The position numbers and the translations under genes were made by a program. The notes below the pieces were generated by a model, which was not told the DNA's origin, ran no database searches, and saw only the letters and a program-made list of their open reading frames with translations. Positions 4,511 through 20,623 of a stretch of DNA of 24,000 nt are shown here, in pieces. The DNA comes from Xylanimicrobium pachnodae JCM 13526 = NBRC 107786 (GTDB lineage: Bacteria; Actinomycetota; Actinomycetes; Actinomycetales; Cellulomonadaceae), in contig BCWJ01000020.1 in NCBI GenBank assembly GCA_001592145.1, positions 52,096 through 76,095 on the forward strand, written 5' to 3'. Position 1 is the first letter of the stretch, and each line of letters starts with the position of its first letter.

Positions 4511-4511
4511 C

Positions 4512-6623: not shown

Positions 6624-7274
6624 TCATCGGCGCTCGCCCACGGCCAGGACCGGGGCGACCAGGGTGGCCGCCATCTCGCGGTCCTGGGCGGGGATCTTGC
6701 CCGCCTGTTCGTAGTCGGCGCTGATGTCTGCCGCGTCCCACGTCGGCAGCGGTGTGGCGTGAGGGGCGCACACGCAGCCGCGGGTTCGCCGGGTGCGCTC
6801 CGGGCAGCCGCACCCGGCGGCGGGCCACTGCGCGTCCAGGTCGGCCTGCAACGCGTCCACGCTGGCGTACGCGAGTCCGTCCACGTCCCATAGGCGCCCG
6901 TCTGGGGTGCGCCCGTACGCGTGGCTCCACTCCACCAACGGGTTCCCGTCCGCGTCGTCCTCCCCGTCGACCGGTTCGTAGCGCAGCACCACGTCCCCGC
7001 CGGTCGCGTCCGCGACCGCGAGAGCCAGGGCCAGGCAGTGACCGTTGCGGTACGCGTGCCGGGCGTTGTCGTCGAGCAGTCCGGGTGTCACGGTCACCGC
7101 GGTGATCGGGTCGCCGTCCTCGTCGCACACCGGGTCGAGCCAGTTGTCGATCAGGGCCAAGGACGCCGGACCGGTCACCTCCCCGCCCAGGTCGTACCCC
7201 GGCGCGGGACCGCCCCCGGTCGCGTACCGGCCTGCGCCGTCGTGCAGGGCCCCGCGGATGTCGATCGTGGTCAC
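6624..7274 (-). CDS. N-terminal-module family protein A (unknown C-terminal body)
   Basis: GTG start. N-terminus MTTIDIRGALHDGAGRYATGGGPAPGYDLGGE matches the 12-member module. The CCGGACAAG core ends 8 nt before the start, with no Shine-Dalgarno. Codon bias is good. Confidence 0.7.
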   Translation of the reverse strand: MTTIDIRGALHDGAGRYATGGGPAPGYDLGGEVTGPASLALIDNWLDPVCDEDGDPITAVTVTPGLLDDNARHAYRNGHCLALALAVADATGGDVVLRYEPVDGEDDADGNPLVEWSHAYGRTPDGRLWDVDGLAYASVDALQADLDAQWPAAGCGCPERTRRTRGCVCAPHATPLPTWDAADISADYEQAGKIPAQDREMAATLVAPVLAVGERR

Positions 7275-7278
7275 ACCG

Positions 7279-7291
7279 GGTACTTGTCCGG
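7279..7291 (-). promoter_or_regulatory. CCGGACAAGTACC motif, copy 1 (upstream of gene A)
   Basis: The plus strand reads GGTACTTGTCCGG. The core CCGGACAAG is exactly 8 nt from the GTG start at 7274. Confidence 0.6.
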
Positions 7292-7324
7292 CGAGCGGTC
7301 ACCTGCTTCGCCGAGCGGTGGAGG

Positions 7325-7344
7325 CCCCGTCCTTCAGGGCGGGG
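7325..7344. repeat. hairpin CCCCGTCC-TTCA-GGGCGGGG (putative right-end structure of the IscB element)
   Basis: 8-bp stem (one G-U/mismatch position) with a 4-nt loop, 50 nt downstream of the iscB stop. It is near-identical to the hairpin at 9108-9127. Confidence 0.5.
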
Positions 7345-7393
7345 AGGAAACCGCGTCGAGACGGTGTTCGGAACGTGGGTTGGTCGTTCTGGT

Positions 7394-8746
7394 TCACTTC
7401 TCGTCTCCGGTGAGGGTTGGTGTGGTCTGGTAGGTGTAGCCATCGCCGCGTTGGAGCAGCCGGACGTGTTTGTGGTTGATGCCCTGGATGGTGGTGTGGG
7501 CGGTGGTGATGTTGAAGGAGCCGGTGGCGCGTACCGCGACCCGGCCCACGTGGGTGCCTTGCTTCTTGCCGGTGGGGACGACGGCGCGTACGAGGTCGCC
7601 GGTGGCGTATCCGTGGTGGATCTTGGTGCGGTTGACCTTGGCTGGGGTGCCGTCTTTGGTGGTGCGGGGGAACCCGTACTTGTCGACGTTGACCCGCCGG
7701 TAGCGGCCCCGTCCGGCGCAGGTGACCACCAGGGTGGTGGCGGGCCACCCGGTGACACCTGTGACGTCTCCGACGCACAGGGCGTCCAACGCGTGCGTCT
7801 TTGGCACGGCGTGGACGGTGCGGTTGTACTTGGTGCGTCCGCCCGTGGACGTTTTGACCGGGAACCCGCGTGCTTCGATCGCGTGGGTTAGCGCCCACCT
7901 CGTGGAGTTGACGGCTGCCGCGTCCCGCAACGGGCGTTTGAGCCCGGCCTTGACCCGTGCCAGCCGGGCAGGGTCGCAGGCGAGGAACACCTCGACGGGT
8001 TGTGCGTCCTTGGCCTGGTTGCAGGTCACGCAGGCGAGCACGAGGTTGGAGACCCGGTTGGACCCGCCCTTCGACCGGGGTCGCACGTGGTCGATGTTCA
8101 GGGGCACGCCGGTGGCGTCGCAGTACACGCAGGTGTGTCGGTACTTGGTCAGAAGGTATTCGCGGGCTTCGAACCCGGCCAGGGTGCCTTGCTGGTACTC
8201 GACCCCGCCGATTTCGGGGTTCTCCATCGCTTGGGTGTCGAAGCGGACGGCTTCAACGTGCACGCCAGTAATGGGTGCCCATCTGGTGAGTCGGTCCACC
8301 CAGGACAGGGTCGTGACCACCCGGTGCCGGGTGGACGGTGCCAGCCACGTGTTGAGCCCGTCGACGGGGTGACGGCGTCGGTTGTCGAACCTCGGTGCGC
8401 GGTAGCGCAGGTTCCGCGACCGGCGGCCCCGGCGTAACTGTGCGCGGGAGGTCATCGCATTCTTGATGGTCAGGCCCCGGTGGACCAGGTCGATCAAGGT
8501 CACCGCTGTGCGTTCACCGTCCCGGGTGGTGGTGAACAGGGCCAGGCCGGAGTGTTTGCTGCCGGGGTCGATGCCGAGTTCCACACCATCGACATCGATC
8601 CCGGGGGTGGTCGCGTCCACGTCGACCAGGCGGATGATGAACGGGACGACCCGGTGGACTCGGGCGCGTCCTTTGCGCAGCAGTTCGCGTGCGCGGGCAG
8701 GACGGGTCGGCATCAAGGGCCGACCGTGACGGTCGAGCACGAACAC
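7394..8746 (-). CDS. iscB: IscB, RNA-guided RuvC/HNH nuclease (RRXRR-HNH family)
   Basis: PLMP domain (FVLDRHGRPLMPTRPARARELLRKGRA). RuvC-I (GIDPGSKHSGLALF). Arginine-rich bridge helix (RRGRRSRNLRYRAPRFDNRRR). HNH (CVYCDATGVPLNIDHVRPRSKGGSNRVSNLVLACVTCNQAKD). RuvC-III (HALDALCVG). C-terminal TAM-interaction-like region (GDLVRAVVPTGKKQGTHVGRVAVRATGSFNI...QGINHKHVRLLQRGDGYTY). Start placed at the GTG at 8746, just before the PLMP domain. The track's extension to 9079 is low-complexity and likely non-coding. Confidence 0.85.
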   Translation of the reverse strand: MFVLDRHGRPLMPTRPARARELLRKGRARVHRVVPFIIRLVDVDATTPGIDVDGVELGIDPGSKHSGLALFTTTRDGERTAVTLIDLVHRGLTIKNAMTSRAQLRRGRRSRNLRYRAPRFDNRRRHPVDGLNTWLAPSTRHRVVTTLSWVDRLTRWAPITGVHVEAVRFDTQAMENPEIGGVEYQQGTLAGFEAREYLLTKYRHTCVYCDATGVPLNIDHVRPRSKGGSNRVSNLVLACVTCNQAKDAQPVEVFLACDPARLARVKAGLKRPLRDAAAVNSTRWALTHAIEARGFPVKTSTGGRTKYNRTVHAVPKTHALDALCVGDVTGVTGWPATTLVVTCAGRGRYRRVNVDKYGFPRTTKDGTPAKVNRTKIHHGYATGDLVRAVVPTGKKQGTHVGRVAVRATGSFNITTAHTTIQGINHKHVRLLQRGDGYTYQTTPTLTGDEK

Positions 8747-9107
8747 GCGCCCGACAAGTAGGGGACGGTCACCCGTCCCGGCTCCCGCACCCACCGGGGA
8801 CCCGGCAGGTGCGGGGGTGACGCCGACAGCAGCAGGAGAACTGCTACCGGTCTCCCCTCGACCCTGTTGACCGCTGCGGTGCCCCGGCATAGCCGTGGCG
8901 CCCGTGCCCCGTTTCGTGGATACCCCATCCGTGTCTGCTGGCACAGGTTCGAGAGCGGCGGGCTGAGGAAGCACCCGACGGTCGATCTGCTGTCGTGCGG
9001 TCAACGCTGTCACCTCCATCTCCTTGTCTCTTGGTGACGTGGTCTGGTCAATCAACCCCTGAAGTTCTCCAGGGCTCAACGGTCAGCGAAACGCCTCCCG
9101 TGACAAG
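8747..9107 (-). ncRNA. candidate IscB omega RNA (scaffold) region
   Basis: The location directly 5' of iscB and abutting its start is where IscB omega RNAs are encoded. The in-frame translation is G/A/P-rich low complexity. Local stems are visible, for example GGGACGG-TCAC-CCGTCCC at 8762-8779 and CCCTG-N8-CAGGG at 9057-9074. The exact ends are unknown. Confidence 0.4.
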
Positions 9108-9127
9108 CCCCTCCCTTCAGGGAGGGG
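9108..9127. repeat. hairpin CCCCTCCC-TTCA-GGGAGGGG (putative left-end structure of the IscB element)
   Basis: Perfect 8-bp stem with a 4-nt loop. The loop contains the present stop codon of gene B (TGA at 9117-9119 on the minus strand). Partner of the hairpin at 7325-7344. Confidence 0.5.
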
Positions 9128-9968
9128 TGATTGACTCGTCCTCGTACAGGCGGGCGACCGGGACGCGGTACTTGCGCGCGTACAGGCTGTCCCCGTCGTC
9201 GTACTCGACAACCACATACCCGGCCTTCTGTGCGACGCCCACGACGGTGACGGACATGCCGTCGAGTTCGTCGTTGCCGGGCAGGTCGAGCCGGTAGTCC
9301 TTGCCGACCATCGACGCGCGCGGCGGGCGCCGGTGCACGGTCTGCGGGCGGGTCGGCGGCACGTAGTCCTCGTTGCGGGTCCAAGTGATCACGGACTCCG
9401 GGTCGAACCGGCCCGGCGAGCAGGCGTTGCAGGAGTACTGCCGGTTCGCGGTCCTGCGGTTGCGCCCCACCTGGTGCCCGTTGGGGCAGGTGCCGACCCA
9501 GCGGGCGGCGGGCTTGGGCTGGCCGTCGAAGCAGCGTTTCCCGTCCCCGCCCAGCCCGATGGCGGTGCGCCGCCACTCCTCGTCGTGCCCGTGCCCGGGA
9601 CCGGTCAGCGCGTGCGCGACCTCGTGGGCGATGGTGTCGCGCACCTTCGCGTCGTCGTGGAGCAGGGTTAGGTCGTGAGACATGGAGATCGTGCGGTCCC
9701 GGTACCGGGTCTGCCCGGCCCGGGCCACCGCCGCGTCCCACTCGAACCGCCACCCGGCCAGGCCCACGTCGGTCAGCAGCCGCTCCGCGTCGGCGCGTAC
9801 CGCGTCCAGGCGTCGCTGCGGGTCCTCCGCGGGCGGGTACCCGTCCACCACCCCGACTGGGGCGACCGGTGCGGGCGCCGACAGGTCGTACCCGGCGGAT
9901 GAGCCGCCGGTGGTCGCAAACCGGCCCGCCTGGTCGTGCACGGCCCCGTTGGTGTCGATCGTGGTCAT
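9117..9968 (-). CDS. N-terminal-module family protein B with SprT-like zinc metallopeptidase domain
   Basis: ATG at 9968. N-terminus MTTIDTNGAVHDQAGRFATTGGSSAGYDLSAP. SprT-like core WRFEWDAAVARAGQTRYRDRTISMSHDLTLLHDDAKVRDTIAHEVAHALTGPGHGHDEEWRR (HExxH), followed by a Cys-rich ribbon (CPNGH...CNACSPG). The track ORF extends upstream over gene C and was trimmed. The last codons (ITPP*) lie in the hairpin of the IscB element. Confidence 0.8.
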   Translation of the reverse strand: MTTIDTNGAVHDQAGRFATTGGSSAGYDLSAPAPVAPVGVVDGYPPAEDPQRRLDAVRADAERLLTDVGLAGWRFEWDAAVARAGQTRYRDRTISMSHDLTLLHDDAKVRDTIAHEVAHALTGPGHGHDEEWRRTAIGLGGDGKRCFDGQPKPAARWVGTCPNGHQVGRNRRTANRQYSCNACSPGRFDPESVITWTRNEDYVPPTRPQTVHRRPPRASMVGKDYRLDLPGNDELDGMSVTVVGVAQKAGYVVVEYDDGDSLYARKYRVPVARLYEDESITPP

Positions 9969-9972
9969 GCCT

Positions 9973-9985
9973 GGCACTTGTCCGG
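9973..9985 (-). promoter_or_regulatory. CCGGACAAGTGCC motif, copy 2 (upstream of gene B)
   Basis: The core CCGGACAAG is exactly 8 nt from the ATG at 9968 and 15 nt after the stop of gene C. No Shine-Dalgarno. Confidence 0.6.
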
Positions 9986-10000
9986 GAGGCGGGCGTCCGG

Positions 10001-10975
10001 TCAGGTGGCCGGTCTCTTGTGTTTGCGGTACTTCCCGAATCCGTTGCTGGTCACCGAGACCCAGGTGCCGCACACCGGGCAGATGGCCCCGTTCCCGGCG
10101 GCGAACCCGCGCCGTTCGGTGGGGTTCTTGCGCGGGTGCGGGCCACCCCACTGATGCTGCTGCCCCGAACCGGGGCAGGTGTCGTCAGAAGGGGCTTTCC
10201 CGATCGTCCACTCCACCGGCGCGGTGGGGAAGCATACCGAGCACAAGATCGCGCCCTCCTGGTCGACCGCGGCCTTCTCGGTGAGCCCAGACAGGGTGGG
10301 CAGCCACGCGTACTGGGTCGTCGGGAAGCACGTCGAGCAGTTCATGTCCTTGTGGATGTGCCCGCCGGAGGCTTGCACGAGGAAGAACCGCTGCCACGGG
10401 TTGGCGTCGTACCGCTCCTCGTATGGGGCCGCCTCCTCAACCAGTGCTGCACGCTGCTCACGCAACGCATCGATCTTCTCGACAGCGGCCCGCGCACGAG
10501 ACGCCTTGGAGTGCGGGTCCCGCTGGTTGTCGAACGCCGCCATCACTTCGGCGCGCTGCTCGCCGGTCAAGTCCCGGTCAGGAACCCTCCCCCACTTCTC
10601 GATCACCTCTTGAGCATGGCGCTCGCGGTCGGTCAGGGGTGGCTCACTTGCGGCGAGTTCACGGGCCTTGGTCTCGGCGTCCTGGTTGCTCATCTGCCAG
10701 GGGCCCTGTTTGGACCGCCCGCGTACGACGGTGAGTTTGAACGTGTCATCAGCGGCCCGGTGGATGGCGTCGAATGCGTGCGCCGACTCGGACTGGAGTC
10801 GGTTCAGTTCACCGAAAATGCGGGCCAGTTCGGTGTCGTTGGCTACCGCTTCGTCATGCGGGACCGGTGGCGGGGAGGCTGGCACCCCCAGATCGTAGCC
10901 AGCGGCCCCGCCCGTCTGGTGGGCGTACTGGCCGACCTGGTCGTGCAGGGCGCCGTTGCGGTCGATGGTCGTCAC
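10001..10975 (-). CDS. N-terminal-module family protein C (coiled-coil-like middle, Cys-rich C-terminus)
   Basis: The GTG start overlaps the TAG stop of gene D by 1 nt (TAGTG). N-terminus VTTIDRNGALHDQVGQYAHQTGGAAGYDLGVP. C-terminal CxxC pairs (CSTCF, CSVCF, CPVCG). It has no motif copy of its own and appears translationally coupled. Confidence 0.7.
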   Translation of the reverse strand: MTTIDRNGALHDQVGQYAHQTGGAAGYDLGVPASPPPVPHDEAVANDTELARIFGELNRLQSESAHAFDAIHRAADDTFKLTVVRGRSKQGPWQMSNQDAETKARELAASEPPLTDRERHAQEVIEKWGRVPDRDLTGEQRAEVMAAFDNQRDPHSKASRARAAVEKIDALREQRAALVEEAAPYEERYDANPWQRFFLVQASGGHIHKDMNCSTCFPTTQYAWLPTLSGLTEKAAVDQEGAILCSVCFPTAPVEWTIGKAPSDDTCPGSGQQHQWGGPHPRKNPTERRGFAAGNGAICPVCGTWVSVTSNGFGKYRKHKRPAT

Positions 10976-11214
10976 TACAGGTCTTCTCCGTTGCGTTCCG
11001 CTGCGTCCGCGCACCCGATGCACAGGTGGTCGCCTGCCGCGTCGTAGTACGCCACCGACGCCTCGGTGCGCCCACACCGGTCGCAGGTGTCGTACCCGCC
11101 AACGACGGAGACGAACAGGTCGGCGCGCAGGTCGAACCCGACGGTGGGGCGCGCCTGGGAGGCGAACTGCCCGTTCGCGCCGTGCAGGTTCCCGTACCGG
11201 TCCAAGGTGGCCAT
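10975..11214 (-). CDS. N-terminal-module family protein D (module plus zinc ribbon only, 79 aa)
   Basis: ATG preceded by ACGGAGGACACG (GGAGG Shine-Dalgarno), 12 nt after the gene E stop. N-terminus MATLDRYGNLHGANGQFASQARPTVGFDL, then CDRCGR...HLCIGC. Resembles the first ~75 aa of gene H. Confidence 0.65.
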   Translation of the reverse strand: MATLDRYGNLHGANGQFASQARPTVGFDLRADLFVSVVGGYDTCDRCGRTEASVAYYDAAGDHLCIGCADAAERNGEDL

Positions 11215-11226
11215 CGTGTCCTCCGT

Positions 11227-12435
11227 TCAGTCCATGTTGTTGGCGATCAGGTATTCGGTGCCGTACGCCTCGACGGGGTCGAGACGGTCGGTGATCTGCG
11301 TGGGCAGGTCTGCCCGAGTCACCTGCTCGGGGGTGGCGGTGTCCAGAAACTCGCGGATCTTCGCGCGGGCTGCGTTGCGCGCGTGCCGGTCGTCCGGGTA
11401 CGCGGTGGACGCCTTCGCGACCTTGAGCACGGTGGCGCGCATGTCGGTGCCGACGCGTGCTGGGTCCAGGCCCCGCATCACGACGGCCGCCGCGTTCTCC
11501 CGGCCCTTCTTGCACAAGGCGCGGATTTCGGCGCCGGTCAGGTCGTCCCGCCCGGCCAGCCCCTCCCACCCGCGCCGGTCGTTGCCGGTCAGGATGCGCT
11601 CCCTAACGTCGGGTGCCAGGTCGGGGTGCGCGGCCACCAACTCGACGGCTCGGCCACCGAACCGGAACCCCCACCGGTCGGTGTCCTCGGGCCGGTCCCC
11701 CAGAATGAACCGCTGCGTCTGGGGATGAAGCCGGATCGCGTCCTCGACGACGTGGGCGGCCATCAGAGACCCGCCAGGCCCGTACGGGTCCTCCGCCGCG
11801 GCCTGCTCGATGCTGGCGATCTGCGCGGTCGCGCCCTGCTGGTCGCGTTGGGTGTACTCGGCCTCCACCTGGGCGGCGAACCGGTCCAGGGTTGTGCCCG
11901 CAGGGTCGGACGAGGTGTGCAACCGGACCCCGGTGCGCCGGTCGGTCGCTTCCAGGTACGCACCGATGGACGCATACGGGCTGGTGATGACGGCGACATC
12001 GAAGCGGGCGTCTGGGTGGTCGGCGTTCCACGCGGTGGCGTCCTGCGCGGTGGGGGCGCAGTGCGCGGTGAGGCGACGTACCTGCGGCGCGGTGAACACC
12101 CCGGGTCCGACACCGTTGGCGCTCGCCTCGAACGCGTGCTCCAACCACGTCTCCTCGGCGGCGCGCTCCACGTCCTCGACCAGGCAGTGCGTGGACCCGG
12201 TACCGGTGTGGACCGTGCCGCTCACCGGGGCGAAGCAGTTGCCGCACACCCCGGCGCAGTCGTCGGCCTGGTAGTCGGCGGCGAGCATGTCGGCGGGCAC
12301 CGGTGGCACCGAGAGCACCGGCACCGGTGTCGGCGGCTGCGACGAGCCCAGGTCATACCCGGCGGCGGGTTGCCCCTTGGCGGAGTACTGCCCGAGCCGG
12401 TCGTGCAAAGCGCCGTTGGTGTCGATGGTGGCCAC
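11227..12435 (-). CDS. N-terminal-module family protein E (unknown body)
   Basis: Start placed at the GTG at 12435 (VATIDTNGALHDRLGQYSAKGQPAAGYDLGSS), with GGAG 8 nt upstream. The track start at 12471 would add 12 aa that no other family member has. Confidence 0.7.
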   Translation of the reverse strand: MATIDTNGALHDRLGQYSAKGQPAAGYDLGSSQPPTPVPVLSVPPVPADMLAADYQADDCAGVCGNCFAPVSGTVHTGTGSTHCLVEDVERAAEETWLEHAFEASANGVGPGVFTAPQVRRLTAHCAPTAQDATAWNADHPDARFDVAVITSPYASIGAYLEATDRRTGVRLHTSSDPAGTTLDRFAAQVEAEYTQRDQQGATAQIASIEQAAAEDPYGPGGSLMAAHVVEDAIRLHPQTQRFILGDRPEDTDRWGFRFGGRAVELVAAHPDLAPDVRERILTGNDRRGWEGLAGRDDLTGAEIRALCKKGRENAAAVVMRGLDPARVGTDMRATVLKVAKASTAYPDDRHARNAARAKIREFLDTATPEQVTRADLPTQITDRLDPVEAYGTEYLIANNMD

Positions 12436-12473
12436 GTGATGCTCCGGGGTCGAAGGAGAACGGTTCGTCACCG

Positions 12474-12486
12474 CCTACTTGTCCGG
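12474..12486 (-). promoter_or_regulatory. CCGGACAAGTAGG motif, copy 3 (upstream of gene E)
   Basis: Core lies 17 nt after the gene F stop and 42 nt before the GTG at 12435. The leader ends in CCGGAGCATCAC. Confidence 0.6.
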
Positions 12487-12503
12487 GGCCGCTAACACCT
12501 GCC

Positions 12504-12968
12504 TCACCGCCAAATCCGGGCCTCGATCGGGGCGCCCACCAGGCGGGCCGCGATCAGCCGGTGCGCCCCGTCGAGGTGCCACATCCGTCCGTCTCCGGGG
12601 CGGTCCGTTACCACGATTGGCTCGATCAGGTTCCCGCGTTCGAACGCCTCCACATACGCCAGCACCTGGGCCACCTTCACGCGAGCCTGCCGCACCACCA
12701 CCGGGTCGTCGGGGGCCACCTCGATGGCTTCGTGCGCGTACTGGAACGAGCCGCCGCCGAGTCTGCCCTGCTCCGCAGAGTGCACCGCAAGGAACCCGAG
12801 GTCCGTAATCGGCACCGTCGCCCTGCGGCCCGCCACGGCACGGAACCGCTCAATCGGGGACGGTGCGGGGGCCAGGTCAAATCCGGGAACCCCGCCGGGT
12901 TGCACGGCGAACCGTCCTGCTGCGTCGTGCAGGTTGCCGTGGTCGTCGAGCGTGCGTGCGGCGGTCAC
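12504..12968 (-). CDS. N-terminal-module family protein F with ParB/Srx-like N-terminal domain
   Basis: The GTG start overlaps the gene G stop (GTGA). N-terminus VTAARTLDDHGNLHDAAGRFAVQPGGVPGFDLAP. The C-terminal part LAYVEAFERGNLIEPIVVTDRPGDGRMWHLDGAHRLIAARLVGAPIEARIW resembles the ParB-like nuclease domain core (Pxxv...y.lvDGhHRl.Aa...G). Confidence 0.65.
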   Translation of the reverse strand: MTAARTLDDHGNLHDAAGRFAVQPGGVPGFDLAPAPSPIERFRAVAGRRATVPITDLGFLAVHSAEQGRLGGGSFQYAHEAIEVAPDDPVVVRQARVKVAQVLAYVEAFERGNLIEPIVVTDRPGDGRMWHLDGAHRLIAARLVGAPIEARIWR

Positions 12969-13768
12969 CGGCGCGACCCGCGGTCTCGGTGGTCCTGCTC
13001 GCAGGTGCCGCACAGGTGCGGGTCGTCCCCGTCGGACGGGTCGGACACCACGGACCCGCCGCACTCGTGGCAGCGGGTGGCCAGGTTCGGGACGAAGTCG
13101 ATCTGCTGGGCGGCGGGCACGTCGTAGAACCGGCCCATCGACGTGTCGACGGTGGTCCACGGGCGTCCGTCCGCCCCGATCGCCACCTCGATGTCGGTCA
13201 CGGTGAAGAAGTCGGCGCGCGACGAGTCCAGCAGGTCGGTGTACAGGCTGTCCTCCGCCGGGTGTGCGGGGTCTACGTCCGGGTCACACCATTCGCCGTC
13301 GGTGTGGACCAGCCCCGACTCGGTGACGGTCAGGCGGGCCAGGCATTCGTCGCAGGTCGGCCCGTAATGGTTGGTGACCAGCGGTGTCGCGACGATCTGG
13401 TCCCCGTCGCGTAGCCCGCCCGCGGACGCGCGCATGGTCAGTTGCGCGTCCTGGTACAGGGCGGCGCGCTGCGCGAACGACAGGTCGTTCGCGGCGGCGT
13501 ACCCGTCCAGGTAGGGGCGCGGGTCGGGGGCGGTCAGCACCGGGGCGGGTAGACGACCCGCGTTCACATGCCGGGTCAGCCACCGGGTGGTGTGCTCGGA
13601 GACGTAGTCGCCGTACGAGGTCACGTCCTGGTTCGCCGCGGTGAACAGCGTGTCCGGGACGACTTGCACTGCGGCAGGGGCCAGGTCGAACCCGGCTGCC
13701 GGGCCGGTCTTGGTCTCGAACAGCCCGGCACCGTCGTGCAGGTTTCCGCGCGCATCGATGACTGTCAT
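12965..13768 (-). CDS. N-terminal-module family protein G (unknown body, C-terminal zinc ribbon)
   Basis: ATG at 13768. N-terminus MTVIDARGNLHDGAGLFETKTGPAAGFDLAP. Cys motifs CDEC and CHECGG...HLCGTC. Motif core 8 nt upstream, no Shine-Dalgarno. Confidence 0.7.
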   Translation of the reverse strand: MTVIDARGNLHDGAGLFETKTGPAAGFDLAPAAVQVVPDTLFTAANQDVTSYGDYVSEHTTRWLTRHVNAGRLPAPVLTAPDPRPYLDGYAAANDLSFAQRAALYQDAQLTMRASAGGLRDGDQIVATPLVTNHYGPTCDECLARLTVTESGLVHTDGEWCDPDVDPAHPAEDSLYTDLLDSSRADFFTVTDIEVAIGADGRPWTTVDTSMGRFYDVPAAQQIDFVPNLATRCHECGGSVVSDPSDGDDPHLCGTCEQDHRDRGSRR

Positions 13769-13772
13769 GCGA

Positions 13773-13785
13773 GGTACTTGTCCGG
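13773..13785 (-). promoter_or_regulatory. CCGGACAAGTACC motif, copy 4 (upstream of gene G)
   Basis: Core is exactly 8 nt from the ATG at 13768 and 10 nt after the gene H stop. Confidence 0.6.
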
Positions 13786-13795
13786 CGGGTTCCGC

Positions 13796-15310
13796 TCAGC
13801 GTCGCCGCGCTCGGTGCACCAGGTCTTCTGGTCTCGTGTTCGGCTGCCATGCGGCGACGACACGGGCACGCATCTCGTCCCATTCCTGCTGGCGGGCGGA
13901 CGTCTTGGCCGCGGCTTCGGCGTTGATCCGGTCCACCATGTCCTGGGTGGCACCCATCTGGGGGTGGTAGTCGTCCACCGTGCGCACGGTGGCGTCGGCG
14001 GGGCGACGACTGGCCGAGACGGTCTGCCCGTCCACGAACCAGTAGGTGCGCTCGTTCGGATCGAACTCGTCCTCGTTGAAGGTGGCGCGCGGGAACTGCT
14101 CAGCGATCCGCTCGCGCACAACGATCGGGTCGGTCTGCGAGGCATGGACGGGGATGGTCGTCCCCGGCACGGTCTTGAACACCTCACCGTCCTTCCCGAC
14201 GTACTCGATCACGCCCGGCCCGGGCAGGAACCGCAGCCGGGTGCCGGGGTTGGTGCTGTTGCCCAGCGGCATCGTCAGCGTGACCACACCCTCGGGGCCG
14301 GTCTCGACGGAGAGCACCTTCCAGTTCCCGACCCCGTCGGACTCGATCCGGTCGCCCGCCTTGATCTCGGACGGCGCCACCGGGCGGATCTCGTCCGCGA
14401 GGCTGCCGGTGACGACCGGCTTCGCGAACGCCTTGACCCCGCCGCGCGTCGAGTTGTTCACCAACTCGTCGAAGTCGCCCCAGGGGTCTTTGCGGGCGAA
14501 GTTGGACGCGTACGAGAACGAGTCCGGGTCGTCGAACCAGCCCCGCTCCCCCGCCATCGCCACAGGCAGGCCGCGCTCCCACCGCTTGCGGGCCTCTCGC
14601 TTGTCGATCTTCTCGGTCGGGTACCGGGTGCGTCCGTCCCGTTCGTCCAAGGCGGCGGTGATGGCCCCGTTGAGCCAGGGCGAAATCTCGCCGCGCGCAT
14701 ACATGTCGTACTGGTCGCTGGGTGACAACTCCCCGGAGACGAACCGGGCCACCAGTGCGTCCTCGCGGGCCTGCTTCTCAGCCCGGAAGTCCTGGTGCTC
14801 GTCCGGGGTCTCCCCGATCTCGTCCTTGCCGAGGATGTCGAAGTCTTCAATGTCCAGCCGGATGTGGTTGCCGACCACGAATCGGTCGACCTCGCGGATG
14901 TCGGCGAACGGTCCGAACTTGCGCCCATCGGAGGTCAAGATCCACCTGGCCGTGTCGTCGGCGGCAGGCTCGCGCACCCCGGGCCGGTTGCGCGACCCGG
15001 ACAGGTGCGGGGTGTCGTCCGCTGGGTAGGAGCCGGTCGCGTTGAGCGCAAAGGTGCGGGCGTACGCGTCCGGGTCCTGCCGCATCTCCTCTAGGCGTCG
15101 TTCCTCGACGCAGGCCAGGCACCAGTGGTTCGCGCCGGACGGGCCGTACGCCTGCACGCCGCAGGTGCGGCGTCCGCAGCGGTCGCACGGGTCGCCGCGT
15201 TCGGCGCCGAGGTTCTCCGGGCTCAGGTCGTACCCGGGGGCACCTTTGTGCTGGTCGGCGTACCGGCCCAGGTTGTCGTGCAGGGCGCCGTTGTCGTCGA
15301 TGGTTGCCAC
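13796..15310 (-). CDS. N-terminal-module family protein H (module, zinc ribbon, large unknown body)
   Basis: GTG at 15310 with GGAG 8 nt upstream. N-terminus MATIDDNGALHDNLGRYADQHKGAPGYDLSPE, then CDRCGRR...HWCLACVEE. 504 aa. Confidence 0.7.
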   Translation of the reverse strand: MATIDDNGALHDNLGRYADQHKGAPGYDLSPENLGAERGDPCDRCGRRTCGVQAYGPSGANHWCLACVEERRLEEMRQDPDAYARTFALNATGSYPADDTPHLSGSRNRPGVREPAADDTARWILTSDGRKFGPFADIREVDRFVVGNHIRLDIEDFDILGKDEIGETPDEHQDFRAEKQAREDALVARFVSGELSPSDQYDMYARGEISPWLNGAITAALDERDGRTRYPTEKIDKREARKRWERGLPVAMAGERGWFDDPDSFSYASNFARKDPWGDFDELVNNSTRGGVKAFAKPVVTGSLADEIRPVAPSEIKAGDRIESDGVGNWKVLSVETGPEGVVTLTMPLGNSTNPGTRLRFLPGPGVIEYVGKDGEVFKTVPGTTIPVHASQTDPIVVRERIAEQFPRATFNEDEFDPNERTYWFVDGQTVSASRRPADATVRTVDDYHPQMGATQDMVDRINAEAAAKTSARQQEWDEMRARVVAAWQPNTRPEDLVHRARRR

Positions 15311-15347
15311 GGGTGTCTCCGGTCGGTGAGGTCTGCTGTGCTCTGTC

Positions 15348-15360
15348 GTCTCTTGTCCGG
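15348..15360 (-). promoter_or_regulatory. CCGGACAAGAGAC motif, copy 5 (upstream of gene H)
   Basis: Core lies 4 nt after the gene I stop and 41 nt before the GTG at 15310. The leader ends in CCGGAGACACCC. Confidence 0.6.
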
Positions 15361-15364
15361 CGGG

Positions 15365-16558
15365 TCAGCGCCCGAACCGGCGGCGCTGCCAGGCGGTCGG
15401 GGCCATGAGGTGCTTGCGGAACTGGTTGTCCGGGTCTTCGTACCCTTGCCACCGCTTCCCGCAGACCGCGCACGTGACCGTGTCACCGACATCGCCAACG
15501 GGCGCGCACTCGTGGGTGCGTTTGATCGCCTTGAGGCGGGCCTTACCGAGCGCCTGAAGGTGCTTGCCGATCAGGGCGTGCACGTTCACCTCGCGCGGCA
15601 TGTCGTAGCCGGTTTGTCCGACGACGGTGGCGGCGAAGGTGGCCTCTGCGCGCAGGTCGCCCACCGTCAGGTTGTCCAGTGAGCGGTCGAGACCGCCCTC
15701 ACCGTGCAGGGCGTCCTCGATCCCGTCCACAGTGACCGCGTTGTCGGGGTCGTCGTCGTGACGGTGCGGGACTCCGTGCTGGGCGAGCAGGGTCGTCAGC
15801 GGGGTGCTGTCTGCGTAGTCGTCCACGTCCGGGAACGCTGCCCGCATCCGTGCGAGCGGGGTCGCCTTCCGATCCCTCAGCGCTGCACCGGCCTCCCGCA
15901 TCTGGTACGGGGTCAGCGGGTGCGGCGGGACGGGTGCGATGCGGTCGGCGGCGGCGCGGGCGTTGGCCGCGGACCGTGGTTCTGTGTCCGCAATGTGAGC
16001 GGCGAACCGGCGCAACTCGCGGGCCGCCGACCTGTCGTCCAACAGCGCAGCGGGGTGACAGCGGAAACCGCTGCCATCCGTGTCGGTGACCCTGTCGGCG
16101 GGCAGGTGCATTCGGGCTAGGCGTTCGGTTGCGGAGACCTCATGCTGCGCCATGACCTCGTTCAACCACGCGTGCGCAGCCGGGTTCTCCGGGTCGGACT
16201 GGACTTGCTCGACGGCCTCGTTCAGTTCCAGGTTCCGGATCTGGGCGACCAGGTAGGCGTGGGTGCGGCTGTCCTCCGGGGCGGATCCCAGGGCGGTGCG
16301 CGCCTCCTCGATCCGCGCCGTCCACACCGTCTCGGTGGGCGGCGCCGCGGGCTCCGGGGTGGGGGTTGCGCCAGACGGGTTCCGCCGCGCCAGGTCGGCC
16401 TGGTAGTCGTCGTAGTCGGACACCACCCGGCGCAACGCGTTGACGAGCCGGTCCGCGCCGTCGGAGACGGACAGGTCGTAGCCCGCGGACGGGTGCGCCT
16501 TGTCGGTGAACTGTCCCAGGCCGTCGTGCAGGTTGCCGCGCGTGTCGATCGTCGTCAT
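15365..16558 (-). CDS. N-terminal-module family protein I (unknown body, C-terminal CxxC ribbon)
   Basis: ATG at 16558 (track ORF trimmed). N-terminus MTTIDTRGNLHDGLGQFTDKAHPSAGYDLSVS. C-terminus HECAP...CAVCGKRW. Confidence 0.7.
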   Translation of the reverse strand: MTTIDTRGNLHDGLGQFTDKAHPSAGYDLSVSDGADRLVNALRRVVSDYDDYQADLARRNPSGATPTPEPAAPPTETVWTARIEEARTALGSAPEDSRTHAYLVAQIRNLELNEAVEQVQSDPENPAAHAWLNEVMAQHEVSATERLARMHLPADRVTDTDGSGFRCHPAALLDDRSAARELRRFAAHIADTEPRSAANARAAADRIAPVPPHPLTPYQMREAGAALRDRKATPLARMRAAFPDVDDYADSTPLTTLLAQHGVPHRHDDDPDNAVTVDGIEDALHGEGGLDRSLDNLTVGDLRAEATFAATVVGQTGYDMPREVNVHALIGKHLQALGKARLKAIKRTHECAPVGDVGDTVTCAVCGKRWQGYEDPDNQFRKHLMAPTAWQRRRFGR

Positions 16559-16562
16559 GCCC

Positions 16563-16575
16563 GGTACTTGTCCGG
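16563..16575 (-). promoter_or_regulatory. CCGGACAAGTACC motif, copy 6 (upstream of gene I)
   Basis: Core is exactly 8 nt from the ATG at 16558 and 6 nt after the gene J stop. The whole gap is 23 nt with no Shine-Dalgarno. Confidence 0.6.
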
Positions 16576-16581
16576 TGACGC

Positions 16582-18297
16582 TCAGAACAGCGGGACGGCC
16601 CCAGCCCCGGCGGCCTGGTCGAGCACCCACGCGGTTTCGCCCTCGTCCACGGCGCCGGTCGCGGCCCGTTCCTGAAGGTATGTGGTGGGTGTGCGGCCCA
16701 TACCCGTCACCGCGACCTGTGCCGTGGCGTCGGTCAGGTCCCAGGTGGTGCCGTCGCGCAGCGCCAGGCGCCCGGAGTCACTGTGGAAGGTGCGCCCGGA
16801 CACGACCTCACCGTTCTTGCGGCGGCGCAGCACATCGTCGGGTGCGATGCCCGCGACGACGCGGGCCGTGTCGGTGTACGAGTCGGTGAACCTGACGAAC
16901 GTGTGTTCCTTGTCGGACAGCCGGTGCCAGCCGTCACTCCACCGTCCCCCTGAGATGGACGCGTTGTCCAGGTCGCTTGGCACGTGCGTGTCATCCTTGA
17001 ACGTGGCCACCACGGCGGGCACCCCTCGCTCGGTCAGCGCGTCCACCAGCATGTCGGCGCGCAACCCCTCCTGCCGACGGCGGGCCTCGTCCACCGCATA
17101 GTCGTGCGCGATCGAGCGCAGGTCGGCGCGGCTGACCGCCTCGGGGGCGATCCGCTTGTGCTCGGCGTACGCGTTGCGCAGTTCCAGCACGTCCTCGGGG
17201 GTCAGGGTGTTCGAGTCGACGGTGAACCCCAAATCCATCTCCGCAGCCGACGCCCCGTGACGCGCCTCGCGCTTCGCAGCGTCAAGCGCAGCGGTCGCGT
17301 CCTCGAACCCGCGCTCCACGTCCTGGACGTACGCCTTCTTCAGCGGCTCGGGCAGGGCGGCCACCTTCTCCTGAGCGCCTGTCAGCCAGCGCCGTGCCGT
17401 GTCTAGACCCTTCTTCGCCTTCATGACATCCGCAGCGCTGGCACGCAAGGGGTCGCCGTACGGAAACTCCGCCGTCGACTGCAGGTAAGCCAGGTTGGAC
17501 TCGCAGGTGGACACCTGCCGCTCCCGCTGCGCCAGCAGGCGCTCCGCCTTCTCGCGCTCCTCGCGGCGCTGCCGGACCGCGTAGTACTGCTCGGCCCAGT
17601 ACCGCTGGGTGTCGTCCGCGTCCCGCAGCACCTTCTGCGCCTCGACGGATAGGTCACTCCACTCGCCTGCCGGGGAGTCGGTCGTGCCGTCATCCTCGAT
17701 GGTGCCGGGCAGGGTGGCCTCGTCGATCTGGTCGCGCACCACCAGCAGGGCCGCCGTCTCGGGGTCCATCGTCGCCCCGTACGCGGACGCCAGTCCCTCG
17801 TTCTTGAACGCGTCCAGGCGGCGGGCCGGGTGATCGGCGGCTTCGGCGCGCAGGAAGTCGCCGACACACTGCGTCATGTCCTCGCTGGTCGCGGCGTCGA
17901 ACGCCCAGTCCCCGTCCGGGGACTCGTAGGTGACCTCACCGGTGGCGTCGTCCACGTTCGGGTCCACGTACATGATGTGCGGGCCGACCCGGACCTCCAT
18001 GAAGTCTCGGCCCCGGTTCGGGTCGTCCGACCAGTCGACCATGTTGTCGGAGTCCTGCTCGAAGGCCTCGCCGGTGTCCTTCAGGAAGACCGTCTCGCCG
18101 TCCACCGTGACGTTCAGGTCGGCGCCGGTGACCGCCTCGGTCACGTCGTTGGTGATCTGGCGGTGGGTGGCGATGTCGCGCAGGATCGTCGCGTGCACGT
18201 CCTCCCCGCCCAGGTCGTACCCGGCGGCGGGCTGGTTCTTGTTCGTGTACTGGCCCAGGCCGTCGTGCAGGGCGCCGCGGGTGTCGATGGTGGTCAC
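16582..18297 (-). CDS. N-terminal-module family protein J (571 aa, unknown body)
   Basis: GTG at 18297, 15 nt after the gene K stop. N-terminus VTTIDTRGALHDGLGQYTNKNQPAAGYDLGGE. No motif copy of its own. Confidence 0.7.
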   Translation of the reverse strand: MTTIDTRGALHDGLGQYTNKNQPAAGYDLGGEDVHATILRDIATHRQITNDVTEAVTGADLNVTVDGETVFLKDTGEAFEQDSDNMVDWSDDPNRGRDFMEVRVGPHIMYVDPNVDDATGEVTYESPDGDWAFDAATSEDMTQCVGDFLRAEAADHPARRLDAFKNEGLASAYGATMDPETAALLVVRDQIDEATLPGTIEDDGTTDSPAGEWSDLSVEAQKVLRDADDTQRYWAEQYYAVRQRREEREKAERLLAQRERQVSTCESNLAYLQSTAEFPYGDPLRASAADVMKAKKGLDTARRWLTGAQEKVAALPEPLKKAYVQDVERGFEDATAALDAAKREARHGASAAEMDLGFTVDSNTLTPEDVLELRNAYAEHKRIAPEAVSRADLRSIAHDYAVDEARRRQEGLRADMLVDALTERGVPAVVATFKDDTHVPSDLDNASISGGRWSDGWHRLSDKEHTFVRFTDSYTDTARVVAGIAPDDVLRRRKNGEVVSGRTFHSDSGRLALRDGTTWDLTDATAQVAVTGMGRTPTTYLQERAATGAVDEGETAWVLDQAAGAGAVPLF

Positions 18298-18312
18298 GGT
18301 GGGGTTTGCCTT

Positions 18313-19425
18313 TCAGTTTTGAGGGAGGGCGTGCATAGCGGTGCGGGTGGCGTGGGCGGCTTGGTCCAGTGCGGCGATCTTCTGCGCGCACGCCGCCGCG
18401 GTGTCCTCGTCGCCCAGCCCGACGGCGTGGAGGCGGGCCAGATCGAGCGCGTTCGTTTTCTGCGCGAGGAGGGCCAGGTGGGCGTCGGCATCCTGCTGGG
18501 TACGCAGCGACGCGACCGGGACGGCCAGCGCCTCGTCCGCGTACCGCTGGTGCTGGGTCACGCCCCGGTAGGCCAGGGTCCGGTGGGCAGCGTCATGGCG
18601 GAACTCCGCCTCAGCCAGCCGGTGCGCGGCGGCGTGGAACTCCTCGCTCTGCTCGTCCTCGATCTCGGTCCCGGCCAGGGCTGCACCCGGCAGAGCAGCG
18701 GCCTCGTTGTACTGGTCGCGCGCCTGGCGTAGTTCCTCGTCGGCGGCGGTTACCTCAGCCCACTCCTGGGCCTCGTCGTGCACGGCACGCCGCGCCCGGT
18801 AGGCGGACAGGACATCCTCGGGGGTGCCACCGAGCGCGGCCAGGATCGCGTCGTTGGTCGCCTGGCGGTGCTCCGGGTGCGCGTCCTGCCCGGAGTGGAC
18901 CAGTTCGACCAGGGCGGCGGCGTGCCCTTCGATCTTGCCGTCGAAGTAGCGGACGTCGCCGGTGGTAGCGTGATGCCGCTGTCGGTCCTTGGCGTAGGCG
19001 ATCTGCTCGGCATGATGCCGGGCGATGCGCTCACGCTGCTCGGGTGACACCTCGGCGCTGACCGCAAACGGGGGCCGCCCGCCGCGCAACTCCGCGACCA
19101 GATGCTCCGCCTGCCGGGGCACGTACCCATCGTCTGACTGGTACGCGTCGTCGAACGCGAGCCCGGGGTCACGCACCAGCGCAGCACCCTCCGCGAACGC
19201 GTACAGGCGGCCCTTGGCTGCGGGCGCCCCATCCTCGTCCCACCGCTCCGCGGCATCCGCCGCCTGGATCATCTCGGTGAGCAGCCGGTCGGACCGGGTC
19301 ACCTCGTCCCGCAGCGGGGCGTCCGGGACGGGGGCGTCCAGGTCGTACCCGGCAGCGGGCTGGTTCTGGTCGGCGTACCGGCCCCGGCTGTCGTGCAGGG
19401 CGCCGTTGTCGTCAATGGTGGACAT
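18313..19425 (-). CDS. N-terminal-module family protein K (helical, unknown body)
   Basis: ATG at 19425 with GGAG 9 nt upstream. N-terminus MSTIDDNGALHDSRGRYADQNQPAAGYDLDAP. Confidence 0.7.
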   Translation of the reverse strand: MSTIDDNGALHDSRGRYADQNQPAAGYDLDAPVPDAPLRDEVTRSDRLLTEMIQAADAAERWDEDGAPAAKGRLYAFAEGAALVRDPGLAFDDAYQSDDGYVPRQAEHLVAELRGGRPPFAVSAEVSPEQRERIARHHAEQIAYAKDRQRHHATTGDVRYFDGKIEGHAAALVELVHSGQDAHPEHRQATNDAILAALGGTPEDVLSAYRARRAVHDEAQEWAEVTAADEELRQARDQYNEAAALPGAALAGTEIEDEQSEEFHAAAHRLAEAEFRHDAAHRTLAYRGVTQHQRYADEALAVPVASLRTQQDADAHLALLAQKTNALDLARLHAVGLGDEDTAAACAQKIAALDQAAHATRTAMHALPQN

Positions 19426-19460
19426 GGTGATACTCCGGGTGAGAGGGCGATCCGTCGTTA

Positions 19461-19473
19461 CCTGCTTGTCCGG
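19461..19473 (-). promoter_or_regulatory. CCGGACAAGCAGG motif, copy 7 (upstream of gene K)
   Basis: Core lies 6 nt after the gene L stop and 39 nt before the ATG at 19425. The leader ends in CCCGGAGTATCACC. Confidence 0.6.
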
Positions 19474-19479
19474 GAACGG

Positions 19480-20553
19480 TCAGGACCCGATTTCGTAGTC
19501 CGCGCCGATGGCGGTGTGCCGGGCCAGCAGGATCTTCTGCCGGGTCGTCAGGTCGGCTTCCATCGAGAGCCGGAACCTGGCCTGCCCGTCCATCGAGTGC
19601 AGCGTGACCGACCTGTCATCGAACACGACGTCGACGCCGGACCGCCGCGCGTCCTCGATCGCGTCCGCCAGGTCATCCTTTGTGCCGCGCCCGTGCACCT
19701 CCGCGACCATGACCTCGCGGTACGGGTTCGTCTTCGCTTTGTCGGACAGGGTGGAGCCGAGCGCGAATGCGGATGCGAACGCCTGCGCCTCCCCGGTCGT
19801 CTTGCCGCGGATCGTGGCGGGCTGGCGGGAGTCCTGCGACGCAGCCGAGTCCAGCGTGGGGGCGGTGGTGAAGGACAGTGACGCGGGCGAGTTGTACCAG
19901 GCCCGGTCGTACCCGAACTCGGGGTCCCGGAACCCGAAGTCGTCGGCCAGACGCTCAGCCTGTTTCGGAGTGTCCTTGACCTTGAAGTTCCCGTTGATGC
20001 CTTTTGGCCACGGGCCGATGTTCCGGTTCGGGGTGTACCCCGCCCCGGCCTCACGGATGTCCGCCTCGGTCTGCTCCCGCCGCGACCGGCGCTTCGCCGC
20101 CGCATCCGGCCAAGACATCCGCAGCGGCTCAACACCAGGGTGCAGTGCGGCGAACTCATCGGCGGTCATGGCGCCACGCTCGACGTCGTAGCGATGGAAC
20201 TCGATCGCGTACTCGTCCGTCGCCTTGTCGTAGTCCCCACCAGCCTGTTCGCCGCAGAAGTTGCAGTAGCCGTCGTCGTCGCAGTCCTGGAGGTGATCTC
20301 CGGATGCGATGCAGTCCTCCAGGGTCACGTAGTCGCCACTAGCGGCAGCCGTGTCAGACCCTGGCCCGGACGAGACCTCGGTCTCGAAGCCATGCGTCTC
20401 GGCGAAGTCGGCAGCCATCTCGTGCGCGTCCTGCGCCGTCACAGGGTCGGGTTCTCGCAAGATGTACAGGTCGTATCCGGCGGCGGGCTGGTTCTTGTTC
20501 GTGTACTGGCCCCGGCTGTCGTGCAGGGCACCGTGGTCGTCGATGGTGGGCAC
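19480..20553 (-). CDS. N-terminal-module family protein L (unknown body)
   Basis: GTG at 20553 with GAGGAA 6 nt upstream. N-terminus (M)PTIDDHGALHDSRGQYTNKNQPAAGYDLYIL. First member of the array in transcription order. Confidence 0.7.
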   Translation of the reverse strand: MPTIDDHGALHDSRGQYTNKNQPAAGYDLYILREPDPVTAQDAHEMAADFAETHGFETEVSSGPGSDTAAASGDYVTLEDCIASGDHLQDCDDDGYCNFCGEQAGGDYDKATDEYAIEFHRYDVERGAMTADEFAALHPGVEPLRMSWPDAAAKRRSRREQTEADIREAGAGYTPNRNIGPWPKGINGNFKVKDTPKQAERLADDFGFRDPEFGYDRAWYNSPASLSFTTAPTLDSAASQDSRQPATIRGKTTGEAQAFASAFALGSTLSDKAKTNPYREVMVAEVHGRGTKDDLADAIEDARRSGVDVVFDDRSVTLHSMDGQARFRLSMEADLTTRQKILLARHTAIGADYEIGS

Positions 20554-20610: not shown

Positions 20611-20623
20611 TGCACTTGTCCGG
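20611..20623 (-). promoter_or_regulatory. CCGGACAAGTGCA motif, copy 8 (upstream of gene L)
   Basis: Core lies 6 nt after the exonuclease stop and 61 nt before the GTG at 20553. Confidence 0.6.

Follow-up and report, generated by a model that had tools for sequence, protein, structure and literature searches.

A 29-residue N-terminal tag shared by twelve otherwise unrelated proteins of Xylanimicrobium pachnodae and its possible role in docking or translocation

The 24,000-nt stretch of contig BCWJ01000020.1 of Xylanimicrobium pachnodae JCM 13526 = NBRC 107786 analysed here (hereafter the window) carries an array of 12 co-directional minus-strand genes, A-L (positions 6624-20553), whose products share one 29-residue N-terminal module, the tag, ahead of bodies unrelated to one another. 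On comparative evidence, and with confidence a little short of even, the tag may be read as a portable docking/translocation signal that would load effector-like proteins onto one component of a DNA-transfer machine. The tag itself is undescribed: no database model or paper was found for it or for a cousin tag on related plasmids, and its logic resembles that of known docking and targeting systems without its being a member of any of them.

Organization of the tagged gene array

A regular expression for the module matched all 12 genes on the minus strand and nothing in the other frames or on the plus strand of the window, and a profile hidden Markov model (HMM) recovered every one of the 12 copies with 55-66 bits (E 1e-16 to 1e-19), in agreement with the initial annotation, which had described the array. 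The window is GC-rich (61-74%), and in all 12 open reading frames (ORFs) the GC content is 0.84-0.94 at third codon positions (GC3) against about 0.5 at second positions (GC2), indicating that these are genuine genes. They are separated by gaps of -1 to 68 nt, with the exception of 1842 nt between B and A, where an IscB gene is inserted, correctly named before as the only interruption. All 12 matches lie where the initial annotation had placed them. At the start implied there for F, however, no start codon is present, and the gene must start with a GTG codon (VTAARTLDD...) two codons farther upstream, which overlaps the stop of gene G. Genes J and K are also present on a 4.3 kb contig of a second assembly, GCA_001314005.1.

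Similarity among the genes ends as abruptly as had been claimed: mean pairwise DNA identity is 68% within the module and 34% in both the 60 nt upstream and the 84 nt downstream. The bodies were said to be unrelated apart from zinc ribbons, and BLASTP at E<1e-4 returned a single match between them, a 39-aa zinc ribbon common to D and H. CxxC pairs are a recurrent feature of B, C, D, E, G, H, I, and L. PHROG matches of bodies B, C, and F start downstream of the module.

Sequence and predicted shape of the tag

The tag has the consensus [MV]-x-T-[IL]-D-x-x-G-[AN]-[LV]-H-D-x-x-G-[RQ]-[YF]-...-G-[YF]-D-L, with D5, G8, H11, G15, G26, D28, and L29 invariant in the 12 aligned modules. More than one synonymous codon is used at eight of the 11 conserved residue columns, indicating that conservation acts at the peptide level. 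The overall ratio of nonsynonymous to synonymous polymorphism (pN/pS) of the module is about 0.73.

No entry covering the module was found in profile searches of Pfam, PHROGs, NCBIfam, and PDB, consistent with its not having been recognised as a named domain in the initial annotation; a PDB match to dUTPase ('AAGYDL', E 2.9) is attributed to chance. Literature searches for either tag motif, for DUF2958 together with conjugation, and for the plasmid pACHL01 revealed no description of either tag. The module is polar and Gly-rich and contains no hydrophobic stretch, RR motif, or Cys, which rejects a Sec/Tat signal or lipobox, as the initial annotation had concluded. A reading of G[YF]DL or [LV]SL as a beta-clamp-binding motif seems unlikely: the usual Gln and terminal aromatic residue are missing, and the invariant residues of the tag lie elsewhere.

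Modelling of the module with AlphaFold2, proposed along with the original hypothesis, was carried out for protein D with a 42-sequence module alignment. The predicted local distance difference test (pLDDT) score is 84 for residues 1-10, 77 for residues 11-20, and 57 for residues 21-30; the model shows a short hairpin, with strands at residues 3-4 and 10-11, ahead of a low-confidence tail. In several proteins the tag is followed by a Pro/Ala-rich linker. This prediction, of moderate confidence, suggests that the tag is a small recognition hairpin on a flexible tether rather than a domain.

Distribution of the tag family

Retrieved loci and retrieved family proteins are designated below by L and P numbers, respectively. 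The HMM search that had been called for was run exhaustively with HMMER against 1.84 billion representative proteins and yielded 95 matches at E<=1e-3, about 75 of them with the tag at residues 1-31 of proteins 65-630 aa long. The bodies of the family fall into 88 BLAST components among 155 sequences. Pfam recognised 11 families among 81 members, each in one member, while about 70 of these 81 bodies contain no Pfam domain. The families include SprT-like, BrnT RNase toxin, DUF3799 (PDDEXK), Mg-chelatase/ComM AAA+, DUF2958, DUF7007, DUF4258, and double zinc ribbon.

Applied to the retrieved loci, the module HMM revealed co-directional tagged arrays on independent metagenome contigs, with 10 tagged genes in 10.7 kb at L009, five each at L006 and L014, three at L001/L013, and three at L015. 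Bodies similar to those of G, E, and C follow one another on L014 in the same order as in the window. Single scattered members without conserved neighbours, named in the initial annotation as a sign against its hypothesis, were not the pattern found: tagged genes recur in arrays of three to ten, with the ATPase described below as a recurrent neighbour.

The tag family is very rare. Among 185,579 species-representative genomes of GTDB, the tag was found only on two short contigs of one Cellulomonadaceae metagenome-assembled genome. A word-indexed protein search with a 44-column profile returned P0001 alone and missed known members, and the same type of search with the cousin plasmid tag returned short proteins only.

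The ATPase at the head of the array and its relatives on plasmids

An ATPase of the FtsK/SpoIIIE (TraB-like) type is encoded at the head of the gene block, as had been noted, with a DnaQ-type exonuclease gene intervening between it and gene L. Only a LAGLIDADG intein and the C-extein of this gene fall in the window. The extein shares about 40% identity with FtsK/SpoIIIE-domain proteins encoded on plasmids of Pseudarthrobacter, Arthrobacter, Paenarthrobacter, and Glaciihabitans; for the Bifidobacterium megaplasmid proteins the value is about 31%. The homologue encoded by pACHL01 has a PF01580 match, and the ATPases of the window and of pACHL01 are distant members of the FtsK/SpoIIIE superfamily. 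Assignment to EccC of type VII secretion systems (T7SS) was rejected, the only match being a partial one to EccCa, with 18 bits against a cut-off of 509 bits.

Plasmid pACHL01 encodes a type IV secretion system (T4SS) coupling protein, a nuclease-related protein, and a 1416-aa FtsK protein, followed by a co-directional array in which at least 19 genes start with the cousin tag ...RQPKGIPxGGQFAATxHxEPxxxL. The same synteny is found in pYJN5-1, with 17 tagged genes. In a tblastn search of 72,556 plasmids, strong matches of the cousin tag were confined to five megaplasmids of Micrococcaceae, each with between 22 and at least 40 places, and the only other match was a weak one in Curtobacterium. 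These are the same five megaplasmids that carry the ~40% identical ATPase. At L015, the gene directly upstream of a tagged gene encodes a 601-aa FtsK-family homologue (identity 28-29%, E 6e-19 and 7e-22). In three lineages (the window, the five Micrococcaceae megaplasmids, and L015), tagged genes thus follow directly on a gene of this ATPase family. The tie between tag and ATPase proposed in the initial annotation gains from this adjacency, but no tags lie within 20 kb of the related ATPases of a Glaciihabitans plasmid and of Bifidobacterium pMP7017, which shows that the ATPase can occur without the tag nearby.

In an hhalign comparison, the 'SAPAG' members of the window family aligned with 18 plasmid tags at a probability of 61% (E 8e-5); the shared register is G-[RQ]-F-[AS]-x4-[SA]-x-P-x3-L. 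Two adjacent genes of Curtobacterium pS16 combine a first half of the TID type, as in the window family, with a plasmid-type 'TVSL/DVTL' ending. Bodies are also shared: P0065 has 43% identity to the DUF2958 protein of pACHL01 (E 1e-25), and P0080 is matched by the DUF7007 protein of the same plasmid (E 1e-14), so that orthologous bodies carry tags of different type. At the level of sequence, the two tag types are linked by profile comparison, the Curtobacterium intermediates, and these orthologous bodies.

The tagged genes of pS16 (L023, 19552-20375) are surrounded by machinery of another kind: the cluster in which they lie encodes at least three ATPases of the type II secretion system/type IV pilus/T4SS family, a TadB/C-like protein, and a prepilin peptidase. 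A short way upstream of its T4SS coupling protein and FtsK genes, pACHL01 carries four paralogues with a Clp protease N-terminal (Clp_N) domain (L018, 6364-9788), which could serve the tagged proteins as adaptors or chaperones.

In the window, the intein (22440-24000, minus strand) runs off the edge together with the ATPase gene and is apparently located at the P-loop, as the C-extein resumes at 'SVSLEG', aligning after 'GAGKS' of the L015 homologue. The C-terminal tail of the ATPase (~21400-21560, minus strand) contains an acidic repeat 'DLGDLDLGDLDLGDLGLDLTDLDLDD' that echoes the terminal G[YF]DL of the tag; this resemblance may be a coincidence or an effect of low complexity.

Internal copies of the motif in polyvalent proteins

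The weak profile matches are giant proteins in which the core of the motif is repeated internally. Copies of FANPWHDEIGRFAPKGTG number eight in P0066 and six in P0082; VVDxxGNxHDxxGRFxxK, which matches the first 22 residues of the tag, is present in two to three copies in P0022 and P0075, and NPxHDxLGRFASK in three copies in P0087. The motif stands at every segment boundary of these five proteins, and the segments between motifs are unrelated to each other inside each protein. P0066 and P0082 share five orthologous segments (62-75% identity) in permuted order, indicating that 'motif + body' acts as a shuffling cassette; the first motif of both is at the very N-terminus. In P0087, a Mu-type portal, the segments headed by the motif make up a C-terminal extension; the 583-aa gene upstream of it has no Pfam match. 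P0066 adjoins a weak MuF-domain protein and ADP-ribosyltransferase toxins, and at L017 the motif directly precedes an ADP-ribosyltransferase domain, with an LPD29 gene nearby. The only match of the portal-type motif in the phage database is in the portal of Nitrososphaera Pro-Nvie1.

The giant motif-bearing proteins are polyvalent proteins in the sense of Iyer, Burroughs, Anand, de Souza, and Aravind (2017; PMC5512222). Polyvalent proteins likewise deploy many unrelated effector-type domains from a mobile element, are tied to DNA-transfer machinery (portal/MuF in phages, T4SS in plasmids), and, according to prediction, reach the target cell together with the DNA. Their typical domains include zincin and ParB; the short motif is not described in the passages of the paper located by term search. 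As to domains, a SprT-like one is found in B, a weak ParB-like one in F, and BrnT, PDDEXK, and ComM-type ones in other members of the tag family, with about 70 of 81 bodies matching nothing in Pfam. As to neighbours, the window has the FtsK/TraB-like ATPase but no T4SS gene, and in pACHL01 and pYJN5-1 a T4SS coupling protein is encoded beside the ATPase homologue. Each body in the window, however, is a separate ORF with its own start and stop rather than part of one polypeptide, and the multi-domain organization of the polyvalent class is seen only in the distant relatives P0066, P0082, P0022, P0075, and P0087.

The position of the motif at all segment boundaries of these proteins could mark it as a processing site or propeptide, cut by a protease such as the SprT-like zincin B or a prohead protease to separate segments and to remove or activate N-termini. 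Processing of polyvalent proteins by zincin peptidases has been proposed (PMC5512222), and gene B does encode such a zincin. Cleavage within residues 1-30 of proteins that are already separate would have no obvious use, however, the first motif of P0066 and P0082 likewise lies at the extreme N-terminus, and conserved length and the predicted hairpin suggest recognition rather than a scissile site. A role in processing is considered highly unlikely; later removal of the tag, as in T4, would be compatible with docking or translocation.

The portal fusions also bring the virion into consideration. The element could be a phage or phage-plasmid whose tag sends proteins into the procapsid, to be ejected with the DNA. 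Related motifs precede segments of the P0087 portal fusion and of P0066 and occur in the Pro-Nvie1 portal, and bodies B, C, and F match phage protein families. Short N-terminal peptides on unrelated cargo are known from the capsid-targeting sequences of T4 internal proteins (PMC3012670) and of P1 DarB, of which the first 30 residues, a length similar to that of the tag, suffice for capsid targeting (PMC9024508). The tag has no sequence similarity to these signals, which belong to phage head systems with prohead proteases, and no head genes or phage relatives were found for the stand-alone tags. Neither the TID-type nor the cousin tag is present in 50,697 phage records, and a scan of IMG/VR gave 26 pattern matches for the tag, none of which was confirmed. 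No capsid, portal, or terminase gene was found in the window or on any tag-array contig; the PHROG 'terminase' matches of the ATPase ORF are confined to the intein. The relatives of the ATPase are plasmid-borne, with no tblastn match of the extein in the 50,697 phage records, and the homologues of body C in more than 300 actinophages lack the tag. Packaging into virions is distinctly unlikely on this evidence. The initial annotation had proposed a shared packaging, translocation, or partner-docking tag; docking or translocation still fits best, and it is the virion option that lacks support for the stand-alone tags, absent from phages and accompanied by a plasmid-related ATPase.

A DNA element near the start codons

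The sequence CCGGACAAG is present in eight exact copies in the window, all on the minus strand and each upstream of a tagged gene; with up to one mismatch there are 21 matches, a number reached in none of 100 shuffles. Two layouts were observed. In one, seen at A, B, G, and I, CCGGACAAG begins exactly 17 nt before the start codon and no Shine-Dalgarno (SD) sequence is present, while before E, H, K, and L the element lies 48-70 nt upstream and is followed by a GGAG-type SD. Both layouts also precede tagged genes on L001, L004, and L006-L014. The counterpart in pACHL01 is CCGCACACA, CCG[CT]ACAC[AG], likewise 17 nt before ATG, and further loci with a start-proximal element are L018 (pACHL01), L021, and L022. 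CCGGACAAG is unlike a sigma-70 -10 box and is possibly an element-specific leaderless-type promoter.

Such an element raises the question of whether the tag has any role as a protein. Duplication or recombination could have left the shared 5' ends behind as a by-product, or they could serve as a nucleic-acid signal for leaderless translation or regulator binding, and the conserved DNA just upstream, the apparently leaderless state of four genes, and the pN/pS of the module would fit this. Against it stand the synonymous variation at conserved columns and the retention of the tag in SD-led genes. Moreover, the pACHL01 start element precedes many untagged genes in addition to tagged ones, indicating that the DNA signal is element-wide and the peptide is no by-product of it; the tag as a side effect of leaderless translation was rejected on the same ground. 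The peptide is also conserved across elements of differing DNA and has internal copies in polyproteins. An origin without protein-level function is barely credible.

Proposed role of the tag

If the tag is a docking/translocation signal, it would be recognised by one component of the DNA-transfer apparatus of the element. The prime candidate for the receptor is the FtsK/TraB-like ATPase at the array head, which the tag would bind directly; alternatively, a coupling protein or adaptor encoded beside the ATPase in related plasmids could perform this function. The hairpin of the first ~20 residues would be joined by the extended tail or linker to the unrelated bodies, and the apparatus would draw the tagged proteins to the DNA under transfer and probably export them along with it. 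Once in another cell, the bodies could act in establishment, anti-defence, or antagonism. The array would then correspond to a polyvalent protein, as known from phages and conjugative elements, split up into one gene for each domain. Those bodies that can be recognised are effector-like by their domain matches (SprT zincin, ParB-like, BrnT, PDDEXK, ComM-type ATPase, zinc ribbons).

A broader proposal, unlikely as a whole, is that Actinobacteria possess an unrecognised protein-delivery route in which an FtsK/TraB-like conjugative translocase, alone or with a VirD4-type coupling protein, exports dozens of tagged effectors per element (12 in the window, 22 to more than 40 on the Micrococcaceae megaplasmids) to recipients or competitors; phage polyvalent proteins would employ this peptide logic again between their domains.

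The tag could instead dock its proteins to a hub inside the cell, recruiting activities to the translocase, to plasmid DNA or the replisome, or to a Clp-N-type adaptor, with no export. The location of the array between the FtsK-like ATPase and exonuclease genes on one side and the topoisomerase II genes on the other agrees with this, as do the four Clp_N paralogues upstream of the pACHL01 coupling protein and FtsK genes, and a predicted hairpin with an extended tail would be typical of a docking motif. Toxin-like bodies (BrnT, DUF4258, and PDDEXK, and ADP-ribosyltransferase in the internal form) nevertheless better fit exported effectors, and the link to polyvalent proteins, for which delivery is predicted (PMC5512222), points to export. 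Docking without export appears unlikely.

Several observations weigh against the docking/translocation reading. No recognisable T4SS or relaxase gene is present inside the window, and the DNA-metabolism genes flanking the array (topoisomerase II, exonuclease) would equally fit an intracellular role. The best NCBIfam match of the ATPase is plasmid TraB (NF041214), far below the family cut-off of 800, with 23.6 bits for the window protein and 25.6 bits for that of pACHL01. Streptomyces-type TraB systems are known for moving double-stranded DNA and are not known to move proteins. The untagged surroundings of the Glaciihabitans and pMP7017 ATPases, mentioned above, belong here too. Finally, the homology between the tag types, and with the NPxHDxxGRF form, is based on alignments of 20-30 columns only, and the full-family profile aligns weakly with the plasmid tags (10% probability).

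The docking/translocation reading has a parallel in the XVIPCD, which docks diverse Xanthomonas T4SS effectors (X-Tfes) to the coupling ATPase VirD4 (PMC8740702). In both cases, one conserved module is found on many unrelated effector bodies. The XVIPCD, however, is C-terminal, folded, ~120 residues long, and Gram-negative, in contrast to the N-terminal, actinobacterial tag of ~29 residues, and there is no sequence homology between them (no Pfam or PDB match).

Another similar arrangement is that of the T7SSb EssC-linked LXG clusters, where an FtsK/SpoIIIE-family ATPase is followed by a variable array of substrates sharing their N-terminal region. In the large paralogous PE/PPE families, likewise, N-termini are conserved and C-termini vary. 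The N-domains of LXG and PE/PPE proteins are helical and comprise 100-200 residues, whereas the tag is 29 aa long with a predicted beta-hairpin, the ATPase fits no EccC/EssC model, and no WXG100 partners were seen. Streptomyces TraB (NF041214) has the actinobacterial plasmid context in common with the ATPase besides being its very weak best match, but the relatives of the ATPase are ~1400 aa long and encoded beside a VirD4-type coupling protein.

As a signal for delivery or docking, the tag would make the cargo repertoire of poorly understood actinobacterial megaplasmids definable from sequence alone. This set would comprise ~75 TID-type protein clusters and 22 to more than 40 genes per Micrococcaceae megaplasmid, most of them with bodies of no known function, and actinobacterial FtsK/TraB-type or associated T4SS machinery would move proteins besides DNA. 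The motif would also provide a testable rule for domain limits in giant polyvalent proteins, and the tag could serve as a 29-residue portable protein-delivery tag in Actinobacteria. Direct experiments are feasible, since Pseudarthrobacter chlorophenolicus A6, which carries pACHL01, is cultured and its genome is complete. Should the idea of transfer be wrong, the tag still marks a large co-regulated set of proteins converging on one partner.

Neighbouring genes and other features of the window

The coordinates of the features are listed in Table 1.

Table 1. Genes and start-proximal elements located in the window.
Feature	Position	Strand	Remarks
Two small paralogous ORFs	17-286, 1003-1365	+	38% identity, E 8e-19
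Helicase-associated (HA) domain gene	324-959	+	between the two small paralogous ORFs
GyrB-like and GyrA-like topoisomerase II subunit genes	1721-6533	-	overlap of 20 nt
Tagged gene A	6624-7274	-	216 aa; tag 7274-7188; body without known domain
CCGGACAAG	7283-7291	-	17 nt to GTG of A, no SD
IscB gene (RRXRR + HNH)	7394-9079	-	inserted between B and A
Tagged gene B	9117-9968	-	283 aa; tag 9968-9882; SprT-like zincin body (PF10263, phrog_1006)
CCGGACAAG	9977-9985	-	17 nt to ATG of B, no SD
Tagged gene C	10001-10975	-	324 aa; tag 10975-10889; body phrog_2433
Tagged gene D	10975-11214	-	79 aa; tag 11214-11128; zinc-ribbon body
Tagged gene E	11227-12435	-	402 aa; tag 12435-12349; body orthologue on L014
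CCGGACAAG	12478-12486	-	51 nt upstream of E, then GGAG SD
Tagged gene F	12504-12965	-	153 aa; tag 12965-12873; weak ParB-like body (phrog_1033)
Tagged gene G	12965-13768	-	267 aa; tag 13768-13682; zinc ribbons; L014 orthologue
CCGGACAAG	13777-13785	-	17 nt to ATG of G, no SD
Tagged gene H	13796-15310	-	504 aa; tag 15310-15224; zinc ribbon resembling that of D
CCGGACAAG	15352-15360	-	50 nt upstream of H, then GGAG SD
Tagged gene I	15365-16558	-	397 aa; tag 16558-16472
CCGGACAAG	16567-16575	-	17 nt to ATG of I, no SD
Tagged gene J	16582-18297	-	571 aa; tag 18297-18211; L006 orthologue
Tagged gene K	18313-19425	-	370 aa; tag 19425-19339
CCGGACAAG	19465-19473	-	48 nt upstream of K, then GGAG SD
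Tagged gene L	19480-20553	-	357 aa; tag 20553-20467
CCGGACAAG	20615-20623	-	70 nt upstream of L, then GAGGA SD
DnaQ-type exonuclease gene	20630-21184	-	between the FtsK-like gene and gene L
FtsK/SpoIIIE (TraB-like) ATPase gene	21222-24000	-	head of block; ORF open at window edge

The window is probably part of a plasmid-like, probably conjugative, actinobacterial element, as judged from its relatives. A search of phages and plasmids for near-identical DNA yielded no relevant match. HA-domain genes are common to the window and pACHL01, and pACHL01 also encodes ParA and pilus or secretion genes. The topoisomerase II is an unusual cargo for a plasmid-like element; it is only distantly related to phage topoisomerases (<=34% identity) and was set aside as a guide to the type of element.

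The most likely start of the DnaQ-type exonuclease is MDLFVG (21184) rather than the ATG of the long ORF at 21508; ahead of it stands CACATACCCGGC-ATG, a variant form of the start-proximal element. For an omega-RNA at the IscB gene, no Rfam match, HEARO included, reached the gathering score. The IscB ORF has ~110 extra N-terminal codons, which probably overlap an omega-RNA region.

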